From NCBI GenBank assembly GCA_033178465.1, contig GCA_033178465.1_4726.1: 63,111 nt of DNA. One strand, 5' to 3'. Below the pieces are notes generated by a model. That model saw only the letters and a program-made list of their open reading frames with translations, had not been told where the DNA came from and searched no databases. The position numbers were made by a program, and so were the translations under genes. Position 1 is the first letter of the stretch, and the number at the start of each line of letters is the position of its first letter. Positions 3,801-54,000 of this stretch are shown here, one piece after another. The stretch comes from a phage.

Positions 3801-4489
3801 ACGTATCGGCTGAACGACGTGACCTCATGATTCAGAATGTTGTGAATTTCTGGTATGACTCACAGCAGTGGTACTATCAGAAATTCGGTGTTTTAGGGCC
3901 AGGGGCAAGTGCGTACGTGTGGGATCGTTGGGATGCGCCAAGCGGATCAAAAGTTAATGATTTTACGATGTACCACTTCGGCGATCAGACAGCATGGTCT
4001 GGTTATCAGCCGAGGGCTTTCTTTTCAGCGGTGCGGCTTTATGCTGGACTGCTTGATCGTGGTTTAGCCGTCCCTGAGAAATTAACCACTTACATCAGTC
4101 ATTGGATTGATTTCTTGTTTACGTATCAACAGGAAAACGCTTATCAATCTCCTACGGATTTTCCGATGGATAAACCCCCTGCTTTTATCCCTAATGACTT
4201 TACTGGTCACATGGCAGGATTATGGTTGGCTGGTGCGTCGTTAGCAATGTTGTACGGACATCCCAACGATAAAGGCTATTCTGTTGCTGTTAATGCGTAT
4301 AACGAAATCGTTGAGAACTACATCAACCGCTACACCGTTGATGACGTAATGAACGGTGGGTGGAGTCCCGCACCAGATAGCGCTAATCTCGGCAGAGACG
4401 GAATGTATTTTGGTTTCTGGAGTGGGGAGATCCTCCGAGGATTAGGCTATTATATTGCCTTATTACGTGATGTAAAACCGACAATTTAA
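893..4489 (+). CDS. large putative virion protein, possibly tail fibre/tailspike-like receptor-binding protein (function inferred from context only)
   Basis: 1198-aa ORF, ATG with AAGGTGGAG RBS; follows the small adaptor-module gene exactly as fibre gene 5230-9198 follows 4696-5223; Trp/Tyr/Gly-rich; no motif recognised. Confidence 0.5.
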   Translation: MATFLPDDKQDLVDQLNVLNKTNIPADGIAVTAVGDSQKLDGVGNYTGTVTVNKPKRSFATLFPFGAIMKKETGNEDVTGRAALALLNEQFHLTIAESYFTEESLNATYQLGTWNSISAQIALEPTKDNPYWKDTLFISMYRSTLGALEASDASASSSIYVDLGSARKAFNLNRTGVYKLPLPTTSSSVPDRYEWCQLLEITPSVVGGQIDWSNYLTLEPLTPTFPVMEIDTTYYFLLWTFNRKDWYVKQITASERYNDVAQLIGKWVLTASPVNFVGYGHARFLTRNTGTFTDPETDHYVLNESGVMVNNRHFIAATRQEAQPDGDATTEGQSLLILGAGIFSHTTDDTKLKAHYLTLAEASFDAYIKAFYAGLEPPDTPTRWIANWIVNGKQPVLAHYPLAKDDYPTHGGFHDTAVTFTSGIGKITHGAPTFGEYMDLVVQVYEGKLGWQNLNADVFKTNDEGTIDWDTKGTVFPIEKVALRTKRYVSADGDDLEACTDDEVGTIVLKDKSVSGSYLVAWAPRVPVEYGGYLIKTNECQHNRPIQVPVTRDYMGNASDAEQWFCEAAYTLYRLTQQERYQKAYKASLFTIEEYTRIDANDKFFRQVKGTDRYDTDGIAYTYTYPSKAPFTITRDTDGWIVIQASSAQIYLEQQAIPFRVNRDSILRVTCGGKDTAGVAIPVEISLSLSLDKTEAKAKTYKLVLPSSAEPKGWDFKIGSLIPADAVDEASTPTGDAVTGSVLISADKVGWKDDVAITTEFSEAVEDSWDGLFLKAQLTAAGGQFEFNPTAKQIVRQVSYFASIDYNVRVEDANGWRWWYMLPATTARNTLTLSANGWTLSGYQPGHADTDPRPSAPVWGDGSTEILFLPDDSDIAEGVFKLYAINNPPSTYTTDDGYTMLFTLKAIFEAEGTLRVGDCTIVNQRLDPLPYTPGIIPFSNNYIPNAPTFDSWRGQPYPGYQHPWVFLDMDVSAERRDLMIQNVVNFWYDSQQWYYQKFGVLGPGASAYVWDRWDAPSGSKVNDFTMYHFGDQTAWSGYQPRAFFSAVRLYAGLLDRGLAVPEKLTTYISHWIDFLFTYQQENAYQSPTDFPMDKPPAFIPNDFTGHMAGLWLAGASLAMLYGHPNDKGYSVAVNAYNEIVENYINRYTVDDVMNGGWSPAPDSANLGRDGMYFGFWSGEILRGLGYYIALLRDVKPTI

Positions 4490-4492
4490 CCG

Positions 4493-4513
4493 ATGGGGCG
4501 GTAACCGCCCCAT
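4493..4513 (+). terminator. GC-rich hairpin after 893-4489 (second hairpin at 4548-4582 followed by AATATG)
   Basis: ATGGGGCGG-TAA-CCGCCCCAT inverted repeat directly after stop codon. Confidence 0.5.
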
Positions 4514-4695
4514 GAACTTTGGAGTGCAGTAGCGTAACCGTATTATCCTCCCCTCTATCTCGCTTTGTCGGGGTAGAGGGGCAATATGCGCGGAATTTTA
4601 TGCGGTCGTCTGGACTGTTTACGTTTACCTCGAATCACACTCTGGTTTCGAGGAGTTATATATTTTAATTTGATTGTTGGAGGAGGGTTGCGCTT

Positions 4696-5223
4696 ATGCG
4701 TTCACTTTACCCGCCATGGAAAGACGAACTGATTACGTTGATAAACCAACGTAACGGTAGCGTGTTCAGCAGCTCCGATCTTACATTAACCTTGGATGGG
4801 AGTTCTGGTGCTAACAGGGCAAAAGTGATCGTCACAGCAAATGAAGGAACAAGGTGGTGTGGTGAAAGTTTTATCACTTACACACGACGTGATATCGCGA
4901 AAGCGTTTCTAGGGATACCGATGAAAATCGTTTTGGAGTCGGTTGAAACAACAACTATAAGAGCGGTTATTCAAGCTATTTCAGATCAGTACGGATTCAT
5001 CTTTGAAACCGATGCTGATTTTGATTCAGCTATCCTTGCTACTGTCATTGATTTTCGTGACGACACATCCAAGAAGATCTCGATTCCCATCGCGAATACC
5101 TCCATGGTTTGGCGTGGGCAATTGGATCTTATCGTGACAAACCAGCGTGATACATCACCAGCGTATCTTTGCGCCGGTGCGGCAACTGTCATCGGTGATG
5201 TCATCACTATTTACCCGGGATAA
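4696..5223 (+). CDS. small protein consisting of the shared ~150-aa N-terminal module (putative tail-fibre adaptor/chaperone)
   Basis: 175-aa ORF; GGAGGAGGG RBS; paralogous to 49-879 and N-term of 11277-13889 (e.g. RRDIAKAFLGIPMKIV vs KRDLAKAFLGIPVKII); stop 6 nt before fibre gene start. Confidence 0.65.
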   Translation: MRSLYPPWKDELITLINQRNGSVFSSSDLTLTLDGSSGANRAKVIVTANEGTRWCGESFITYTRRDIAKAFLGIPMKIVLESVETTTIRAVIQAISDQYGFIFETDADFDSAILATVIDFRDDTSKKISIPIANTSMVWRGQLDLIVTNQRDTSPAYLCAGAATVIGDVITIYPG

Positions 5224-22848: not shown

Positions 22849-22891
22849 TCGCCCTATCCCAACTAACATTTAGATTAAAAAAGAGGTGAAT

Positions 22892-23386
22892 ATGGATAAG
22901 AAAGTTGAAATGCATGGTATTTGCGGGCGTCCTGCGGAAACGTCTAAAATAAAGGATAGGGTATCAGCTCTTCTCAATTTAGTGCCCAATACCGTACTAG
23001 TTGCATGTTGGGATATTATCGACACAACGATGCTGCGATTCGAGGCGAATTTAAGGAACAACAGTTGCTGGAGTCCCGCTTTGTCGGTTGACGATAAAGT
23101 CTATCTCGTAAACGAGACAACCGATAAAGATAATAATCGTATCGATCGTTGGCGTTTTGCGTTGCACGACAACGTTGTTAGTATCGACGTTATACTGAGT
23201 ATAACAGGTGAATCGTGTATTGCTGTCAATGAAATAGCGGCATACGCCAAACTAAAATTAGCACAGTGTTTTCATTCGCGTGTCCGAGGATTCGATATGC
23301 CCGTTATACTAACAATCAACGGGCACGACGGTTCAGGGCTGTTCGAATTCCACTACGATCCCGACAATGAAAATACAGAAGAGTAA
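22892..23386 (+). CDS. small protein, member of tandem paralogue family (C-terminal …EYxPDNE motif)
   Basis: ATG at 22892 with AAGAGG RBS; C-terminus (…FDMPVILTINGHDGSGLFEFHYDPDNENTEE) paralogous to 23460-23921 and 23921-24385. Confidence 0.7.
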   Translation: MDKKVEMHGICGRPAETSKIKDRVSALLNLVPNTVLVACWDIIDTTMLRFEANLRNNSCWSPALSVDDKVYLVNETTDKDNNRIDRWRFALHDNVVSIDVILSITGESCIAVNEIAAYAKLKLAQCFHSRVRGFDMPVILTINGHDGSGLFEFHYDPDNENTEE

Positions 23387-23400
23387 TTAATCAACGATAT

Positions 23401-23425
23401 CGTGTCCCTTGTTAGGTGGGACACG
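23401..23425 (+). terminator. hairpin after 22892-23386
   Basis: CGTGTCCC-TTGTTAGGT-GGGACACG inverted repeat. Confidence 0.5.
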
Positions 23426-23459
23426 TATCGGTTAAAAGGTGTCGAAGGTGTTAAAAAAA

Positions 23460-23921
23460 ATGACGACATGGGATTCTTACGGTGAGCAGCTGGTAGAATC
23501 GATAATTAAAAGCTTTGAAATACTCGAAGTAAGATTGCAGGAGGACGGGTGCTGGGAATTATTTAACGAGCCCGATTCCGACTCCGAACCTTACTTCTAC
23601 AACCTATCCGTTCCAACAACACAACACGGCAATGCTACGATTGTAGATATCACCGACATCAGAGTTTACAATAATCGTATCGCTGCGACAGCACAATTAC
23701 CTTTCAGCGTAAACGGGCTTGCCGCAAAGCAACTTCTAATGTATACAGCCAACGAGACATTTGGTAAATGCATAAAGTCGCACGGTATCTCGTTCCCCCT
23801 AGCGATCGATTATGAATTATCGGATGGCTGCAATCTCGTTACATTGGAGTATGAACCAGATAATGGAACAGAGAGTGCTGTTATCTCTGTTCCGATGAAG
23901 ATGAAGAAAGAGGTAGAATAA
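23460..23921 (+). CDS. small protein, member of tandem paralogue family
   Basis: C-terminus QLPFSVNGLAAKQL…ISFPLAIDYELSDGCNLVTLEYEPDNGTE; start assigned to ATG at 23460 (alternative GTG 23439/23448 possible). Confidence 0.65.
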   Translation: MTTWDSYGEQLVESIIKSFEILEVRLQEDGCWELFNEPDSDSEPYFYNLSVPTTQHGNATIVDITDIRVYNNRIAATAQLPFSVNGLAAKQLLMYTANETFGKCIKSHGISFPLAIDYELSDGCNLVTLEYEPDNGTESAVISVPMKMKKEVE

Positions 23922-24385
23922 TGGCAACAACGTATTCATTCGAATCTAACGTCAACGAACTTTTCGACTCGCATAAAGACGCTTACGTCACGCCTGTTGC
24001 TGACACCGTCACTCGAAGTATCGAATCTCTCAAACAAAATCTACGCAAATCCGATATTTGGTCGGTGGGACATAGCGATAATGACGGGACGTATTTTACC
24101 ATCGTGGAACGCATCCCAACAATACCGTTCCATAGCGTTTATCTCGACAGTACCGTTGTTTTCTATGTTTACAAGCACCGTATCCTTATCAACATACAAC
24201 TACCATTCAGCGTCAGCGGGGTTGATGCTATACGTCGGTTGTCTGATGTTGCTAATAACGCATTTACGAAATCAGCTATGCCGTGCGATTTCCCTATTAC
24301 GGTAACACTCAAGTTTTCCGATGGTTATGAATTCTACACGATGGAGTACTCTCCAGATGAAGAAGGAACTAACACCAAAGAGTAA
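23921..24385 (+). CDS. small protein, member of tandem paralogue family
   Basis: C-terminus QLPFSVSGVDAIRRL…DFPITVTLKFSDGYEFYTMEYSPDEEGTN; TAATG overlap with previous gene. Confidence 0.7.
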   Translation: MATTYSFESNVNELFDSHKDAYVTPVADTVTRSIESLKQNLRKSDIWSVGHSDNDGTYFTIVERIPTIPFHSVYLDSTVVFYVYKHRILINIQLPFSVSGVDAIRRLSDVANNAFTKSAMPCDFPITVTLKFSDGYEFYTMEYSPDEEGTNTKE

Positions 24386-24399
24386 TTACACGTAAACAT

Positions 24400-24432
24400 G
24401 CCCTTCCCTAGCCGTCAAGGCCGGGGAAGGGC
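24400..24432 (+). terminator. GC-rich hairpin after 23921-24385
   Basis: GCCCTTCCC…TCAA…GGGAAGGGC followed by TGTATACC. Confidence 0.5.
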
Positions 24433-24461
24433 TGTATACCGACTACACAGGAAAAGAAACA

Positions 24462-24902
24462 ATGAACATGAAAACCGACAAATCGATGAAAAAGCGCTTA
24501 GATCGTCTATTCAATGGTCCCACGGTAGCCTCCGTCGTTGAGGATGTTATTACTCAAGCATTCGAATGCGTGGACAGAGGTCTTAATAGTATCCTTGGAT
24601 GGCATCAGAAAGAACGTGAAGGTAAGCTCGTCCAGTGTTACAATGAACGTCACTTTGATGATGGTGGTATCAGTGGCGATTACTTTATCTATTTATTTCC
24701 CGATAAAATCACGATCAACATCGAATTCGATAATGCGATGAACGATCAGGAAATAACATCGATGCGCCAAGCCGCAAAACAAGCCTTCGGACGTTGCGTG
24801 GAGCAATACGATCCTGATGTGTTTATCACGTGCCGCATTTTCATCGAACCGAGAAAATTAATTCAGCATATGTCCTACGGCACCACGGATGATGATATCT
24901 AA
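24462..24902 (+). CDS. small protein, probable divergent member of tandem paralogue family
   Basis: 146-aa ORF; C-terminus ITINIEFDN…VEQYDPDVFITCRIFIEP resembles family pattern. Confidence 0.6.
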   Translation: MNMKTDKSMKKRLDRLFNGPTVASVVEDVITQAFECVDRGLNSILGWHQKEREGKLVQCYNERHFDDGGISGDYFIYLFPDKITINIEFDNAMNDQEITSMRQAAKQAFGRCVEQYDPDVFITCRIFIEPRKLIQHMSYGTTDDDI

Positions 24903-24972
24903 CGAAGGTGAACAACACCTTCAAACATAAATCAATACATCAATCAATCGACATAACCACTAGGAGCATTCA

Positions 24973-25458
24973 ATGAACATCAACTTTACTATCGAATCCG
25001 GCGATTACATGAACGATCGTGATATCATCCCATTCTACCGTGAGGATTTCCGCAACGCTATTCTTAAAACGATTGAGGATGTCTTGGATCTCGCTGAAGA
25101 TCAACTTAGCAGCATCACCCCTGAAACACACGTAAAAGCACGTGACGAAGCTCTGGGTGACTTGTATATACCTAAAGCCTGTGATCGCTGCTGCTTCACT
25201 GATTTCTTCGTGTCTACGCAAGCGGTCGTTACCGACGATGGGAAGCATCACGTGATCCTTATCTTGGCTTCTCATGAGCCTATGATCAATCACGCACTTT
25301 CTTTTACACCCGGGTACATCTATGCCCTTGCAAACAAGCCGATGATCAACGAAATCATTGCTGACATCCTTAGTCAGATTTGCAAAGAACATGGATTCCT
25401 GTCTATTTTCTTAACCGACGCTGACTACAAAGTAACGGTTGGTAACGAACGCGCATAA
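24973..25458 (+). CDS. hypothetical small protein
   Basis: 161-aa ORF, AGGAG RBS; followed by GC-rich hairpin 25463-25499. Confidence 0.65.
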   Translation: MNINFTIESGDYMNDRDIIPFYREDFRNAILKTIEDVLDLAEDQLSSITPETHVKARDEALGDLYIPKACDRCCFTDFFVSTQAVVTDDGKHHVILILASHEPMINHALSFTPGYIYALANKPMINEIIADILSQICKEHGFLSIFLTDADYKVTVGNERA

Positions 25459-25462
25459 ACCT

Positions 25463-25499
25463 CCACCCCTCCCTCCGGCTTCCGCCAGGGGGGAGGGGC
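25463..25499. terminator. GC-rich hairpin between convergent blocks (after 24973-25458)
   Basis: CCCCTCCCTCCGGC-TTCC-GCCAGGGGGGAGGGG followed by CTTCGCATGCG and TTTTCTTTTTG. Confidence 0.5.
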
Positions 25500-26297
25500 T
25501 TCGCATGCGTTTTCTTTTTGTTAGGCGAGGATCAACGGGATGACCCTTATCGTATCACTTGAATCATTCGATGGTCCGCGCTTCCTCTTTCGGACGCGTC
25601 GCATCGAAATGCTCTAAGAGTTCAAACATCGATGGTGCTTTATAAACGATTCTACAGAAGTCTACAGCGTTCGTTTTACCTCCGGTAATAAAGTTGATAC
25701 CTAACTTCCTGAATTGATAGTCAGAGACGCCCTCAATGCGTGATAGCTCACGGAAAACACAGGCTCTGGATAGATTCAACAGGATCTGCCCGTTTGGATA
25801 ACTTGAAGATATATCGAGCTCTTACGATGGCTCAGTAATTTCTATACATGAACACAACGAAAAATAGACCATATCTTAGCCTGTCTTAGATTCGCGTTAG
25901 CAAACCAAACGGTGTTTCTACAACACCTCGACCGACTTCTCCCTTTTCAGAGAATATCCTAATTCTCCTACTCCGCGCAACCGGATGGTCGTTGAACGTT
26001 ACCCGTAGCCTGTCCGTGTTAACCACGCCGACTTATGAAGCCGGTCACGACAGTCCGTAGGGTCTTCGCTGCTACGGTTACCTTATTTCTATCTTCTACC
26101 CTTAGTACCACTGTCGCCTTTCGCTATCCAAGAAAGCAGTGGCTTTTATTGCAACATAGGTAATCCCCTCCAACTTTTTTCTGTCTTTCGACAACCATCA
26201 CGTTTACCCTTTCGGATTGCGTTGTGGTGTGGAGGGGCATTAAAGGTTTCCAGCAATTAAAGAGAGTTCGCCCACTCATTACAAGTAGGGGGACCTG

Positions 26298-27488
26298 TTA
26301 TCGTTCTAATGGAACATTAAATACACGCTTCTTCTTAGGAACTAATTTATTAACATCGAAATCAGGCATGGCGGCAATATCATCAGCGTAGCGGAAGCAC
26401 CAAGGTTGTTTCGTAGGTACTGCGCGTCTATCACAATGGCGACGTACGGTAATCCAGGAGATTCCTAACGCATTTGCAGCAGCAGTTACCGATGGGAACA
26501 CATGTCGCTCGTTCGTCTCTTTATTAATAGCAAGAATACCACGACCATCGGTGTCCTCGACGCGACGATCTTCTCCGAGTTTCCACTCAGGCCAAGGCGT
26601 ATTATCCGTGGCAAACTTGATGTACAAATCGCATTCTGGAATACGTTTTGGTGGATTGTTCACCCACCATTTGAAACGTCCTTTCGGCACGTACGGATAA
26701 GCACGTTCCGCTTCTGCGATACTATTAAAACGACGTTCGATTCGTGCACGGTAATCATAAACCAAAACAGGTTTTGACGTACCTATACACAACCCTGCCA
26801 TACGAGCATGTTGATTGTTCTCAGCATATGTTGCCCATTCGAGGTTATCAAACCAATCGTCACCTTTAATTCCGTTCTTATGGTTTACGGTTAAGTTAAC
26901 AACGTTAGCGTCATATCTCGTAAACGCTAACATGATAGCTCGATGACGATACAATTGCGGTGTAAACCCGCTATCAGGAACCACTTTACGATAAGCGTAT
27001 CCGCCAAGACGCGTACCCTGTTGAACCGTTTTCGTCCACGTGATAGGATCCAACGAAAGAAGACTAATACAGTGTCCTTCTTTATTTATCGCGTAACGAG
27101 ATGCGAACGGAATATAACAATAACCTTCGAATCCCTCAACTTCTAACGGCCCATTACGGAAACGATAGATGTGATTGTTATACGAAAAGTTAGTCGGATC
27201 TCCATCCACAAACAACGATTCAATTTCATCGTAAAGATGGTCTGGTAAAACAACCCGTTCGAGAGCAGTGAGAACGATCATGCCGAGATCGTATTTTCCA
27301 ACGCCTCTATACCAATCGATTTCAACATAAGGGACACCATCTACAACTTCGTAAGGGACGACCCTATCTTCTTTATAGTCGTACAACTCGCCATCTTCAA
27401 ATATACGATAACGACGATTGGTATACGGTAAATAAGCTGAATCTCGATAGTCAATAGTTCCAGTTTGAGTATGTATAGATTTTTCCAT
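26298..27488 (-). CDS. HNH homing endonuclease with C-terminal helix-turn-helix-like DNA-binding motifs
   Basis: 396-aa ORF; HNH motif NHKNGIKGDDWFDNLEWATYAENNQHA; C-terminal FPSVTAAANALGISWITVRRH resembles homing-endonuclease HTH/NUMOD-type motifs; free-standing next to a DNA-metabolism gene. Confidence 0.8.
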   Translation of the reverse strand: MEKSIHTQTGTIDYRDSAYLPYTNRRYRIFEDGELYDYKEDRVVPYEVVDGVPYVEIDWYRGVGKYDLGMIVLTALERVVLPDHLYDEIESLFVDGDPTNFSYNNHIYRFRNGPLEVEGFEGYCYIPFASRYAINKEGHCISLLSLDPITWTKTVQQGTRLGGYAYRKVVPDSGFTPQLYRHRAIMLAFTRYDANVVNLTVNHKNGIKGDDWFDNLEWATYAENNQHARMAGLCIGTSKPVLVYDYRARIERRFNSIAEAERAYPYVPKGRFKWWVNNPPKRIPECDLYIKFATDNTPWPEWKLGEDRRVEDTDGRGILAINKETNERHVFPSVTAAANALGISWITVRRHCDRRAVPTKQPWCFRYADDIAAMPDFDVNKLVPKKKRVFNVPLER

Positions 27489-27577
27489 CTCGTAAACCTC
27501 ATGTAATATCTAGATGTATCGGCCTCTCTTATGCCGCACACAATTCTTACATGAAGTAAACTTTTACAGAACGAAGG

Positions 27578-29077
27578 TTAATCCGCAACAAATAATCGAA
27601 TATAGCTCCTTAAATTAGGCATATCCCAGAATAGATGAATGCCGTTGTCCGCCATGAGATCGCACGGTAATGTGACGATATGTCCGGTTCGTGAGATAAC
27701 CCACTTATCTTCTTCCTGGGTCATGTCGTCAGCGGTACATCCCATGACTTCCCCACGGTTAAGATAAACGAAGAAAAGTTTATCGCAGATACGTTTAGGG
27801 TTAGAACTGAAATCCTTCAAATCCGATGCCGCTAAACGAATCGGGATGGTCATCGAATAGTCTTTTGTTTTCTGGTCCAACGCCTCGATGCCTTGGTTAT
27901 CCCAAAGGTTATATACGCCGTAGTCGATTTGATGGTTCGTTTGCATCTCTTCGTGCCACGCAAGCTCCGTGAACCCCTCTGTACCAGGAATCGCTTTTAA
28001 TTTCGTATGGCATTTATTTCGCTCTAATACCGCATCGAGTGAATAGCGTCCTTCATCCGGTCTTCCTAAACGAACGAACTTATAACCACACATCGCATCC
28101 ATAACCTGATACGTAGCCATCGTATAAAACATCGGCCAGGTCTGCTCAAGGGTAAGGTTGGTTTTACGACCTGAAGCAGATACCTTGTCGGTCTTCGGTG
28201 GTACCCAGCGAGCAATACGATATTTAGGTGGTACACGAGGATCGGAGAAAACATCCTCGGGACGATACCCTTCCTCGTTCAGCGCCTGGAGCATGCGTGG
28301 AATATCGAACGCGATATTCCAGCCAAGGAGATAATCCGGCTGCCATTCGTGAACCTTCTGCATGCATTGGATGACCGCTTGCGCCGGACTTTCTACGATT
28401 CGCACATCGTAATGATATTTTTCGAACGCATGAGGATCTTCTTTGGTGTTCAGACGTTCGGCCAGGTAATATCGAATCTTCTCGTGGGTTTTCTCAATCG
28501 CATTCGGAATATGACCAACGAAGTCCTTGGTATAGCAAAGTATCGCATTGTATCCCATTGTAATAGACATACAGACGATCTTACCGTGCCCGTGGACAAC
28601 GTCGGTTTCGATATCGAAACAGGCAATGGAAGCGGGTAATTTATCGACGTATTCCGGCCATTTTGTATTGTATTGGGTTTTTAAATAACAGCTGGCGCTA
28701 ACGTCCGTACCATAGAGGTATGGACTCCGGGCGAGCTGTTGTAAACGGGTGTTATCGTCAGCACGTCTTTTATAAAGCACCGAACTGATCTTTTCAACCA
28801 GTTCACTTTGGCGGACATCATAGCGACGCACATGCGAGAGCTTCTCGCTTTCCTTTTTATATTTGTTCTTGCGTTTACTCTCTACTGTCACCCAAAACGG
28901 ACGTTTGTAATTCTCAAAGAAGCGAAGGTTCGTCGCTTGCGTATTATCATCGAAGAACACGATCTCTTTTGCGATCATGAGGTCGTTCTTGCTGCCATCG
29001 TTCGCTTCGTTATAGCTGATGTGTCGACATTGAATACCGAGCAGTTTCTTCTTAGGTTTTCGTTCTTGTTCGCTCAT
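27578..29077 (-). CDS. DEDD-type 3'-5' exonuclease domain protein (candidate proofreading/split DNA polymerase fragment)
   Basis: 499-aa ORF; motifs CFDIETD (Exo I), LLGWNIAFDIP (Exo II), YGVYNLWD (Exo III-like); no polymerase palm motifs seen in this ORF. Confidence 0.55.
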   Translation of the reverse strand: MSEQERKPKKKLLGIQCRHISYNEANDGSKNDLMIAKEIVFFDDNTQATNLRFFENYKRPFWVTVESKRKNKYKKESEKLSHVRRYDVRQSELVEKISSVLYKRRADDNTRLQQLARSPYLYGTDVSASCYLKTQYNTKWPEYVDKLPASIACFDIETDVVHGHGKIVCMSITMGYNAILCYTKDFVGHIPNAIEKTHEKIRYYLAERLNTKEDPHAFEKYHYDVRIVESPAQAVIQCMQKVHEWQPDYLLGWNIAFDIPRMLQALNEEGYRPEDVFSDPRVPPKYRIARWVPPKTDKVSASGRKTNLTLEQTWPMFYTMATYQVMDAMCGYKFVRLGRPDEGRYSLDAVLERNKCHTKLKAIPGTEGFTELAWHEEMQTNHQIDYGVYNLWDNQGIEALDQKTKDYSMTIPIRLAASDLKDFSSNPKRICDKLFFVYLNRGEVMGCTADDMTQEEDKWVISRTGHIVTLPCDLMADNGIHLFWDMPNLRSYIRLFVAD

Positions 29078-51054: not shown

Positions 51055-54000
51055 ATGAAAAAATCGTTAGCTGATCTGATGCGTAAGTCGCATCTTAACC
51101 TGGAAAGCGGCGATACACCTATCGAAGTCAAAGCAACGCTTTCTACTGATAAAGAAGAGCAAGTGATCGCATTACCTACAGCGGCACGGCCAGACAGCAT
51201 CGAAGCGACGATCGAATCAGATACGCTCGAGGAAGGGGCTACCGTTGATGACGCTGTTCGTGTGATTCGTAGCACGGGTGAAAACGGCGAGGATGTCGTA
51301 CGTGCTGTTATTGTTACCCGTCCTATTGATGGTAGTTTGCGAATCCGTTTCACACCGAGCAACGGTGGTGTGACCATGGAAGACGGTAACGATGTTCAAC
51401 CGTTCGTTCTGATCGCGGTACCGACCGCACCTGGCGAAGAGCCGAAGAACCCGTATCCGGCAAACGCACCGACCGAGACACCGGCACCGAAAGTGACCAA
51501 TGACCCGACCGTTAACGCTGACCGTGACAACCTGAAGAACAAGATTCAGGATGCGGCTAACGCCATCGATCCAACCAATCCGGCACAAATCGAACAGGCT
51601 GCGCAACCGGCAGAAACCACCGAAGGTGTTAAAGGCAATGTCGTCGAACCGGAAAAAGCAGAACCTGTTGCTGAAACAGCAGCTGAGGTAGCCGAGGCGA
51701 CGCCAGAAACCAAAACGACGGAAGAACCCATCAAAGTCACCGTGATTAAACGTGTCGTAGAGAAAGTAGAAAAGGTTGAAGATACCGTCGCTAACGAACA
51801 ACCTGTTGTCGACGCTAATGACGGTAATACCGGTGAGCAGAAAGCTGAAGCAGTTGCTCAGGAAACAGAACTGCAAGGCGATGTTGAGGTCGATAGCGCC
51901 GACGAAACGTCCACCGAGGATAGCACCACCGAACCCGCGTCCGAAGAACCTACCAACACCGACGCTGATGCTGATGCTACCGACACCACAACCACCGAAG
52001 GTGACGACGATGAAGACGACGAAAACGAAGAAGATGAAGATCTGAAACAAGAGTCGTTCGAAATTCATCAAGAGCTGGAAGCCCGCGGCGTATTAGATGT
52101 TCCTGTTGTTGAACAGCGCGCATCTGTTATTCTCGGCGAAGGTGAAACAGATGTAACCGTCATTGAAACAGAACAACCGTACATTCCTGGCACCATGGTG
52201 GTACGTCGTCTTGATGGGGATAAGAGTGTTATTGTTCGCCGTACTCGTTACGCTGAACGCTTTAACGCTGATGGTCAGGGTGAAGCGATCGCCATTGTCG
52301 ACCCTACTCTGCAAGGCGAACTGAAAATGGAATTCCGTCCGGCTGAAGGTCCGATGGAAAGCTTCGAGATTCGTCCTGAAATCAAAGACGAATACATCAT
52401 GGAATCGTACAAACAGCTTGATGTCGCACTGAACAGCGATCTCAATCTGGAAGACGGGGAAAAGCAACCGGGTCGCTTTAAACAGATTCTGAAATCGGTT
52501 TACGAAGCGGTCGCGAAGTTCTTAAAAGCCCTCGTGGCGCGTTTGAAAAATCTCTTTGGTGTTAATAAGAAAAAAATCGAAGAGAAGGCCGACAAACTGA
52601 CCAAAGAACAACGCACAGCACCAGTGATGAAACTGCTTCCTCCGCCGAGCGATACCAAGAAGGTTGACGTTGAGTGGAATAAACTGGATACGCTGCTCGC
52701 AAACGACTCGAAATCTGTCGATAAGATCGTAAACGCCGTCAAAGACAGTAAACGTATTGCGGACGCGTCGAAGAAATATTTCGATGAGTTAAAGAACAGC
52801 AAGGAAGGCGAGCAAGTTCAGCATCCAGCTGAAATGAAAGCAGCTCTTGGAATGGCGGGCGTGAAAGCGTTCGGATATTCTATCGACGACGCGTTAAACG
52901 GCATTCGTGAGTTCCGTGACGAACTTAGCGCCATGAAACAGCAGGATGATGCTGTGCCGTCCAACGTTAGCGTTGAAATGCTGATCGATGCATCAACAAA
53001 ACTGTTTGACGAAGACCTCCTGAAAGCAGCTACTCAACTTCAGGAGACGGCTGAGCAGTTACTCCGCGATCTGGACAAAGTGGAAAACGAATCAGGCGCA
53101 CGCTACGTCACGCAGCGCACACGTACCCTGATGAACTTTGCAACAACTGCATGCACCGTTTACGGATTCGCCGCAAAAGAACTGGGCGATGTTACCGTTC
53201 GTATACTCACCGCTGTCGCAGCGGCTGATAACGGTGATCTCAAACAGGAAGAGTATCAGGATGTTGCCGGTGAAAACGATCCGGTTGTCACCATCGAGAC
53301 ACTGGAAGGCGATGCTGGTACTCGTGTTGTTGCTGAGGCGGAAATCGTTGATGATCCTGCTGTGGTGGAATTCGTTGAGCGTGCTGAAGAAGCGCAGCGA
53401 AATCTGGCTATCGGTCGCCACGCGGTGAACGCGGTGGAAGGTATTCTGGTAGCGGCACGTGAGATCGGTCCTGATAACTTCCAGGGTAACGTCGAAGCTA
53501 CCGAAATTGCGATGGAAGGATTCATGGATACCGTTAAGAGCGCGGTCAACCGTATCGGTAACTGGATTGAAACCAACCACCGTTACTATACCGCCGCTAC
53601 GGCTCCATGGGATAAGCTGTTCGCCGAAACACAGCAAGCGTTGGCCAAAGCGCGTCGCGGTAACCCAGCAGCAGAACGGATTATTCTGAAACGTTTCATC
53701 CGTCATCTTACCATCGGTGGTGAACCTGTCACCGATGTGAAGAAGCTCATCGCTGCGTTGGGTGAAATCAAAATGCTTGGTAACATGACGCGTGAATTAA
53801 TCGTTGCTATCAATCGTGAGCTCAGCGACGTGCGGAAGAGCAACCAGTCCGAAACATCCGCTGGATCGGTTGTTGGTCTGAAGCGTATTCCTATTCAGAA
53901 ATGGGATAAGCTCATGGTCGCTACCGTACAACCGTGGAAAGACAGCGATCGTAAAGGTGTTGGGTCCAAAGCGTATCTTGGTGAAACGCACATCGTGAAG

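Follow-up and report, generated by a model that had tools for sequence, protein, structure and literature searches.

A segment on the minus strand of a 63,111 nt stretch of phage DNA (NCBI GenBank assembly GCA_033178465.1, contig GCA_033178465.1_4726.1; the whole stretch is referred to as the window) is interpreted here as a mobile group I intron of 1762 nt, probably of subgroup IA, which carries its own HNH endonuclease gene and interrupts the DNA polymerase gene of a Goslar-like chimallivirus. We put the probability of this interpretation at about 0.9. On the predicted boundaries, the insertion is between the Asp and Leu codons of ...FVAD/LDISSSYPN (the slash marks the exon junction), two residues before the Asp that is read as the metal ligand of polymerase motif A. 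The element is of an ordinary, textbook kind and is not annotated in the reference genome of Escherichia phage vB_EcoM_Goslar (record MK327938), a nucleus-forming jumbo phage to which positions 25400-26400 of the window are 93.8% identical. No description of a Goslar polymerase intron was found in the literature searched.

The comparison covers three copies of this type of intron, namely those in the window, in Goslar and in the IMG/VR contig L010, together with the related IMG/VR contig L008 (IMGVR_UViG_3300045988_173921, a metagenomic phage), where a different intron is found. On the side of the first exon the window is 92.8% identical to Goslar, 95.4% to L010 and 96.6% to L008, and it is distinct from all three.

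Identity and boundaries of the proposed intron

The signal for a structured RNA is a covariance-model match combined with the continuity of the two exons, not thermodynamic stability. The minus strand carries, in this order, a 499 aa open reading frame (ORF), an HNH/NUMOD1 ORF, a stretch free of ORFs, a 71 aa ORF with a TTG start, and a G+C-rich hairpin. The frame of the second exon is open from 25821 and reads ELDISSSYPNGQ...; its translation matches 282 phage records, nearly all of them from chimalliviruses, when searched with tblastn; 280 of these are counted as other jumbo phages. The matching genes are labelled DNA polymerase or hypothetical, except in Goslar, where the match falls on DNA without annotation. 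In 201phi2-1 (gp144) and in the polymerase of Burkholderia phage SURPRISE13 the gene is uninterrupted, and the two pieces from the window are colinear with it, showing neither gap nor overlap at VAD/LD.

Just one junction (GAU/...G/CUC) restores the Asp-Leu pair, and it also obeys the splice-site rule of a U before the 5' site and a G as the last intron base (GCGGAU/UAACC..., ...UAAGAG/CUCGAU), so that the intron is assigned to 27580..25819. Its first three bases are an in-frame UAA (27580-27578), and its last is a terminal G (omega G) at 25819, which directly precedes the exon-2 codon CUC. Independent support for these boundaries comes from L008, where DNA homology is lost at window position 27578 and regained at 25801. 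The predicted exon junction has ...GCGGAU joined to CUCGAUAUA... (junction peptide ...LFVADLDISSSYPNGQ...), and the predicted spliced product comprises 583 aa. Splicing itself is implied by the viability of Goslar together with the lack of a separate translation start for the second exon: neither a start codon nor a ribosome-binding site is found upstream of the DISSSYP motif, and there is an in-frame TAA at 25824-25822.

When Rfam is searched by E-value, the sole match in the window is to the group I model RF00028, on the minus strand at 26362..25844. It spans the full model (1-253) with 45.9 bits and an E-value of 7.6e-10 locally, or 1.7e-8 for the whole window; the copy in L010 (5552-6072) scores 47.0 bits. 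The placement of P1 and P2 by Rfam (26362-26330, in the HNH reading frame) was rejected as spurious because protein continuity fixes the true 5' splice site 1.2 kb upstream.

The initial annotation had singled out 25459-26297 as one unusually long, G+C-structured region without ORFs, next to an HNH gene, and had suggested a structured RNA or the remnant of an intron. The absence of genes from 25780-26297 is real, neither strand having anything longer than chance ORFs of 30-55 aa, and so is the unusual length: the gap between gp069 and gp070 in Goslar measures 820 bp, 3.7 times the next largest annotated gap in 63 kb (222 bp). The suggestion of a structured RNA or intron was well placed, as there is a group I covariance-model match on the minus strand and the flanking coding sequence joins in frame. 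Other parts of that description had to be revised. The region is not rich in G+C (46.6% vs 46.9% in the whole window), and the interval is not one feature, as its first 105 bases (25459-25563) are separate and lie outside the intron. The HNH gene is not beside an intron but inside it, the intron starting 92 nt upstream of the gene at 27580, while the supposed short ORF at 25564-25779 with its TTG start is part of the polymerase 3' exon, which opens at 25818, upstream of the TTG. An Rfam scan, which had been proposed as a check, gives no match in the whole window at the default gathering threshold and the RF00028 match in E-value mode; a default scan would have wrongly refuted the intron idea, because nothing in the window reaches that threshold.

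The interrupted polymerase gene

The host gene is of the phiKZ gp82 / 201phi2-1 gp144 type, which encodes the N-terminal DNA-polymerase polypeptide. Homologues are annotated as DNA polymerase in RefSeq, and Goslar gp068 is annotated with the DNA_pol_B_exo1 domain. The sequence DISSSYP(N) at the start of the second exon resembles, by eye, motif A (DxxSLYPS) of family-B polymerases and is tentatively read as such. A profile and sequence search of the PDB with the C-terminus of the polymerase was uninformative.

Among nucleus-forming phages, Goslar serves as the model in E. coli. In its annotation the polymerase appears as a truncated “hypothetical protein” (gp068), the endonuclease appears as an independent gene (gp069), and the second exon is absent. 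Recognising the intron would correct the gene model of an essential replication enzyme in this phage.

The predicted RNA fold

Local folds reproduce P4-P6, P7.1, P7.2, P8 and P9, and they were used because minimum-free-energy folding of the whole core did not recover the group I fold and gave a weak z-score. In the resulting model (Table 1), P3 (8 bp) and P7 (GACCA/UGGUC, 5 bp) form a pseudoknot, and the P5 extension has two GAAA tetraloops. Across the three copies, the 154 modelled pairs are paired in 99.4% of 462 cells, compared to 40-46% after a shift of the partners by 1-3 columns. Two pairs have changed on both sides and ten on one side while still being paired; three pairs at helix ends (loop-closing or outermost) are broken in one copy each. 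A change from U-A to C-G at 26138/26112 is compensatory, four pairs of the P6 hairpin vary with all remaining paired (one by change on both sides), and one-sided changes in P8 preserve the pairs. The three copies show no indels over 1.8 kb, and the core differs between window and Goslar at 3.8% of positions vs 23% at synonymous sites of the HNH gene, which is about six times slower.

Two motifs pointed out in the initial annotation find their place in this model. The stem CCGGCTTCATAAGTCGG exists on the minus strand at 26044..26028, as the P6 hairpin CCGGCUU/AAGUCGG, and in Goslar and L010 it reads CCGACTC/GAGTTGG and CTGACTC/GAGTTGG with every pair kept. The repeated CTACGG segments are likewise present, their two copies being the two sides of the P6 internal loop.

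The P7.1/P7.2 hairpins, which are conserved or covarying across the family alignment, probably point to subgroup IA, an assignment made by their presence and not by a formal classifier. A block of 32 nt (J6/7, P7, P7.1) is conserved in nine IMG/VR contigs and in the phiKZ gp72 intron, some of these being in other genes. When the 3' halves of 13 family members were aligned with MAFFT, the window-type P8 was misaligned, so no pairs were counted from that alignment.

Table 1. Features of the polymerase locus in the window, with the basis on which each was placed.
Feature	Position	Strand	Basis
Group I intron, 1762 nt (predicted)	25819..27580	minus	protein continuity with homologues; DNA homology breaks with L008; RF00028
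5' exon, 499 aa, ending ...RLFVAD; last base U27581 is the 5' splice-site U	27581..29077	minus	ORF; alignment with uninterrupted homologues to ...VAD
3' exon, 84 codons and stop, starting LDISSSYPNG	25564..25818	minus	tblastn; unannotated in Goslar
HNH/NUMOD1 homing-endonuclease gene, 396 aa	26298..27488	minus	Pfam, PHROG, PhiPA3 gp210 homology
Leader hairpin; the Shine-Dalgarno GAGG of the HNH gene (27500-27497) lies in its 3' strand	27496..27557	minus	fold -24.9 kcal/mol, z -3.0; within the 92 nt intron leader
Putative internal guide sequence AGGUCC	26291..26296	minus	homology; order shared with L008, L032, PhiPA3, HPP-Temi
P2 hairpin	26271..26289	minus	local fold; hairpins of differing sequence at the same place in L008, L032, PhiPA3
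P3 5' strand (26266-26259), P4, P5 and large branched P5 extension	26069..26266	minus	Rfam alignment; local fold -53.4 kcal/mol
P6 three-way junction, including the CCGGCUU/AAGUCGG hairpin	26001..26063	minus	local fold; pair counts
P7 5' strand GACCA (25990-25986), P7.1 (25985-25972), P7.2 (25968-25949), P3 3' strand (25946-25939)	25939..25990	minus	Rfam alignment; local folds
Branched P8 (25937-25878), J8/7, P7 3' strand UGGUC (25871-25867)	25867..25937	minus	Rfam alignment; local fold; pair counts
P9 region with the terminal G (placed with least certainty)	25819..25864	minus	local fold only
ORF, 499 aa	29077..27578	minus	weak DNA_pol_B_exo1 match
ORF, 71 aa, TTG start	25779..25564	minus	ORF list; inside the 3' exon
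3' untranslated region and G+C-rich hairpin (~25467-25502)	25459..25563		between the convergent polymerase gene and plus-strand gene; outside the intron
End of convergent gene	25458	plus	ORF list

Related introns and a recurrent insertion site

In L008 (4334-5869), a different group I intron is found at the same phosphodiester bond, with a core of 326 nt that scores 70.4 bits and an HNH protein of 377 aa that is 42% identical to that of the window. A distant chimallivirus contig, L032 (IMGVR_UViG_3300037502_002993), has at 4333-4837 an intron without a reading frame (54.6 bits), inserted exactly at the site used in the window (GUUGCGGAU/...GAG/CUUGAC) and with a P10 of 5 bp. In gene 085 of phage PhiPA3 (HQ630627; 4346-4689 of L031), an intron without a reading frame (71.7 bits) is positioned 6 nt downstream of this site, and HPP-Temi (PP968062; 846-2564 of L046) has the same intron (59.2 bits) with an HNH gene in the P1 loop. 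In the PhiPA3 and HPP-Temi records the pieces are given as separate coding sequences, and there is no intron feature among the annotated features returned. Unlike the intron of the window, those of L008, L032, PhiPA3 and HPP-Temi all exceed the Rfam cut-off. Taken together, three intron types (those of the window, L008 and L032) are found at VAD/LD and one (PhiPA3/HPP-Temi) 6 nt downstream. The Asp-Leu codons by the chimallivirus motif A would be a recurrent homing site, where two positions, 6 nt from each other, are used by four intron types.

The second exons of the window and L008 encode identical proteins, and 10 of their 21 synonymous differences fall within the first 27 nt, while the last 51 nt of the first exon are identical. 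This pattern fits an endonuclease target in the 3' exon which has been recoded or co-converted.

The P3-P5 part of the core also resembles sequences from more distant phages. In Vibrio phage pir03 (2931-3310 of L005) a group I intron (54.7 bits) splits the gene for the RNA-polymerase beta' subunit. The similar sequences in Klebsiella phage Miami (3007-4399 of L006) and Aeromonas phage ACP1 (2533-3279 of L004) lie in unannotated gaps of 1.39 kb and 0.75 kb, which have no Rfam match at the gathering threshold and may be further missed introns. The gene upstream of the similar RNA in ACP1, ACP1_0118, was considered and is not a polymerase homologue. Further BLAST similarity to P3-P5 is found in sequences of Staphylococcus, Listeria and Brochothrix phages, all of them unannotated stretches.

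P1 and the position of the endonuclease gene

In the model that we prefer, P1 would be formed by a distal guide, GUCC (26294-26291), situated four bases past the HNH stop codon, which can form 4 bp with the exon end GGAU, including a wobble between U27581 and G26294. P10 would come from the adjacent AG (26296-26295), which can pair with the CU that opens the 3' exon. This distal guide is favoured because four other introns, those of L008, L032, PhiPA3 gp085 and HPP-Temi, have the same succession of GUCC, P2 hairpin, P3 and AAUUG. In L008, GUCC again occurs just after the reading frame. In L032 and PhiPA3 gp085 it is 15 and 9 nt from the splice site and is the sole candidate guide, as these introns have no reading frame. 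The polymerase intron of HPP-Temi is of the PhiPA3 type (83.8% identical), and an HNH gene has been added to it between intron nt 7 and UAGUCCC; the insertion is upstream of GUCC, and therefore introns of this family would have their reading frame looped out of P1. The HNH gene of the window apparently sits in the P1 loop as well.

The encoded protein matches Pfam NUMOD1 with 29.5 bits (above the cut-off of 22.8), HNH_3 with 20.8 bits (below the cut-off of 24.8) and PHROG 59 “HNH endonuclease” with an E-value of 4.8e-18. Its homologues include the HNH protein of the HPP-Temi intron (32% identity, E 1e-40), phiKZ gp179 and PhiPA3 gp210 (E 8e-14). The motif NHKNG...NLEW.T..EN aligns with the I-HmuI structure 1U3E, the match being marginal (E 0.62), and a PDB sequence search with the protein was uninformative. 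The gene is intact in three phages with a pN/pS of 0.02-0.06 at a pS of 0.09-0.23, pointing to strong purifying selection.

Two changes in L010 preserve pairs of the hairpin in the intron leader (Table 1), and hairpins covering the ribosome-binding site are found in all three ORF-bearing introns (window, L008 and HPP-Temi, with z-scores of -3.0, -1.9 and -4.8). We infer that this hairpin would mask translation of the HNH gene.

The Goslar genome has two places that match the HNH protein with tblastn, the second homologue lying outside the equivalent of the window. Within the window itself, tblastn revealed no second homologue beyond a weak match (33% over 61 aa, E 0.006) on the plus strand at 53758-53937 to the NUMOD1/helix-turn-helix end of the protein, which may be a DNA-binding module in an unrelated gene.

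Points against the interpretation, and alternatives

Several results weigh against an active intron in a polymerase gene. The RF00028 score is 4 bits under the curated gathering cut-off of 50 bits, which is why a default Rfam scan misses it; the shortfall coincides with long insertions in P5, P6, P7.1/7.2 and P8. The thermodynamic z-score of the core is only -1.64. Covariation, whose check against related phages had been proposed in the initial annotation, shows the pairing kept and is not statistically decisive, as 59 of 500 shuffles of the three near-identical copies reach the two double-sided changes. P1 in the preferred model is short, with a duplex of -4.0 kcal/mol, and faces a stronger competing pairing. 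The polymerase assignment is drawn from weak profile hits (E about 0.01) and from database annotations, with motif A read from the sequence; the Pfam DNA_pol_B_exo1 match lies below the cut-off at E-values of 0.0085-0.012. Homing, lastly, would be without an observed substrate, because no intron-less close relative was found: a search of the protein database gave an exon-1 fragment only, and the DNA pattern of an intron-less junction had one match in IMG/VR and 27 in metagenomes, none encoding a polymerase.

The competing pairing leads to a variant of the same architecture, in which P1 is formed by a proximal guide, GUUCUGUAA (intron nt 9-17, 27572-27564), the hairpin at 27557-27496 serves as P2, and the loop with the HNH gene emerges between P2 and P3. 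The exon end would form 7-8 bp with this guide instead of 4, with a duplex of -6.8 rather than -4.0 kcal/mol, and U27581 would then find its partner in G27572. The proximal guide sequence is also invariant in the three copies, and the ORF-bearing loop could be closed by a 7 bp pairing (UUACGAG/CUUGUAA) that was spotted by eye. We nevertheless consider this variant unlikely, as L008 has no comparable proximal guide, the order GUCC-P2-P3 is kept in four other introns, two of which have no reading frame, and the gene is inserted upstream of GUCC in the HPP-Temi/PhiPA3 pair. On a speculative note, the proximal pairing may be a transient alternative helix that keeps hold of the 5' splice site while transcription of the core is completed.

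The remaining alternatives deny splicing of the RNA altogether. A decayed remnant, as had been suggested initially, would have a dead ribozyme, a permanently split polymerase and an effectively free-standing HNH gene, and it could account for the sub-threshold Rfam score, the short P1 and the large insertions in P5, P6 and P8 compared to the family consensus. It is hard to reconcile with a second exon that lacks a start codon and ribosome-binding site and is preceded by an in-frame stop, with a core that changes about six times more slowly than synonymous sites and whose changes keep the pairing, and with an exon-2 protein that is 100% identical between window and L008 despite the 21 synonymous differences; in addition, Goslar, with the same intron at 96% identity, is cultured and viable. 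We regard decay as very improbable and the intron as complete. A split intein (“fractured gene”), in which protein trans-splicing unites two polymerase pieces made by separate translation, was put forward for jumbo phage MIJ3 and its DNA polymerase B (PMC6892783), and the order of polymerase piece, HNH gene and polymerase piece is the same as in that report. For the window this is hardly credible at all. The exons abut (...VAD, LD...) without an extra residue when compared to uninterrupted homologues, leaving no room for the N- and C-terminal blocks of an intein, and as no residues intervene at the junction this mechanism is set aside; moreover, the second exon lacks a start codon, and the gap between the two pieces is precisely where the group I core is found.

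Neighbouring features

The polymerase gene and a plus-strand gene converge on a G+C-rich hairpin, CCCCUCCCUCCGG...CCAGGGGGGAGGGG. The segments of the two strands at 25459-25563 fold with -38.5 and -47.6 kcal/mol, and this is probably a bidirectional terminator; a simple terminator scan did not flag the hairpin at 25467-25502. The 3' untranslated region differs from that of Goslar by an 18 nt indel at 25556-25539. On the plus strand, 22886-25458 holds five consecutive ORFs of 146-166 aa with 18-22% identity and a common Y-x-P-D near the C-terminus. These (Goslar gp070-074) look like a diverged array of tandem paralogues, convergent on the polymerase gene. A scan for tRNA and tmRNA genes found none.

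Proposed mechanism and implications

Under the preferred model, a pre-mRNA would be made by the phage RNA polymerase, and a ribosome on the unspliced RNA would halt at the UAA which opens the intron. GUCC and the exon end GGAU would then form P1, and because the guide that pairs with the exon end follows the HNH stop codon, the leader and the 1.19 kb HNH gene would be looped out. The core (P3-P9, with P7.1/P7.2 and the enlarged P5, P6 and P8) would bind guanosine and carry out two transesterifications, resulting in the mRNA for the 583 aa product. The HNH/NUMOD1 protein would nick or cut intron-less or rival alleles near the start of the second exon, leading to homing or exclusion, as does its homologue PhiPA3 gp210.

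A wider view can be taken of the rival introns that occupy the same polymerase codon in Goslar-like phages, which are about 96% identical and each have a synonymously recoded 27 nt start of the second exon. The two HNH introns (window and L008) might be competing weapon-and-immunity cassettes, where the ORF in the P1 loop, the masked ribosome-binding site and the competing proximal helix at the 5' splice site form a switch. We consider this reading unlikely. Should it be correct, either endonuclease would, during co-infection, gain entry to the phage nucleus of the related phage and cleave the rival allele, with its own allele protected by the recoded exon. This would extend the interference described for PhiPA3 gp210 to the replicative polymerase and to a conflict of intron versus intron. 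The switch would then order splicing and endonuclease expression in a setting where transcription and translation are physically separated.

On the practical side, the default Rfam threshold misses enlarged phage group I introns. Routine annotation pipelines would not report this one, because the copies in the window and in L010 score 45.9 and 47.0 against 50 bits. Since these phages transcribe and translate in separate places, the locus offers a natural system for asking where splicing takes place and how an endonuclease gains access to DNA in the phage nucleus.

Comparison with known introns

One of the closest counterparts is found in PhiPA3, where the gene for an RNA-polymerase subunit carries a group I intron with the HNH nicking endonuclease gp210 (Birkholz et al. 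2024, PMC11620839). Both are found in the same virus family, interrupt an essential polymerase gene by conserved acidic residues and encode homologous HNH proteins (29.5% identity over residues 120-350, E 8e-14). They differ in the host gene (an RNA-polymerase subunit rather than DNA polymerase) and in phage genus and host; the protein of the window has an additional N-terminal region of about 120 aa.

The introns of PhiPA3 gp085 and HPP-Temi share the host gene, a similar core, the pairing of GUCC with ...GGAU and the UAA start. In HPP-Temi the HNH protein (32% identical, E 1e-40) is likewise encoded in the P1 loop behind a hairpin that masks the ribosome-binding site. These introns are inserted 6 nt downstream (VADLD/I) and lack the enlarged P5, P6 and P8 of the window, and the one in PhiPA3 has no ORF.

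DNA-polymerase introns of the Bacillus phages SPO1, SP82, phi-e and Bastille encode I-HmuI, I-HmuII and I-BasI, as cited in PMC11620839 and PMC12908238. Like the element described here, they are HNH-encoding group I introns in a phage DNA-polymerase gene, and close relatives carry similar introns with highly divergent ORFs at the same site, as is the case for window and L008. Enzymes of the I-HmuI type recognise mainly sequence of the 3' exon, which fits the clustered recoding at the start of the second exon in our comparison. The polymerases of these Bacillus phages belong to family A, whereas that of the window appears to be a split, family-B-like enzyme. The Bacillus-phage introns were reportedly described by Goodrich-Blair and Shub in 1994 and 1996 and by Landthaler and Shub in 2003.

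A further resemblance is to the td, nrdB and sunY introns of T4 and to the Twort introns (subgroup IA2), which share the P7.1/P7.2 insertion. The td intron with I-TevI also opens with an in-frame UAA and has the start of its endonuclease gene masked by RNA structure, as would be the case in the window. The T4 and Twort introns differ in that they encode GIY-YIG or other endonucleases in the loops of P6 or P9, while the intron in the window has an HNH gene placed in the P1 loop.

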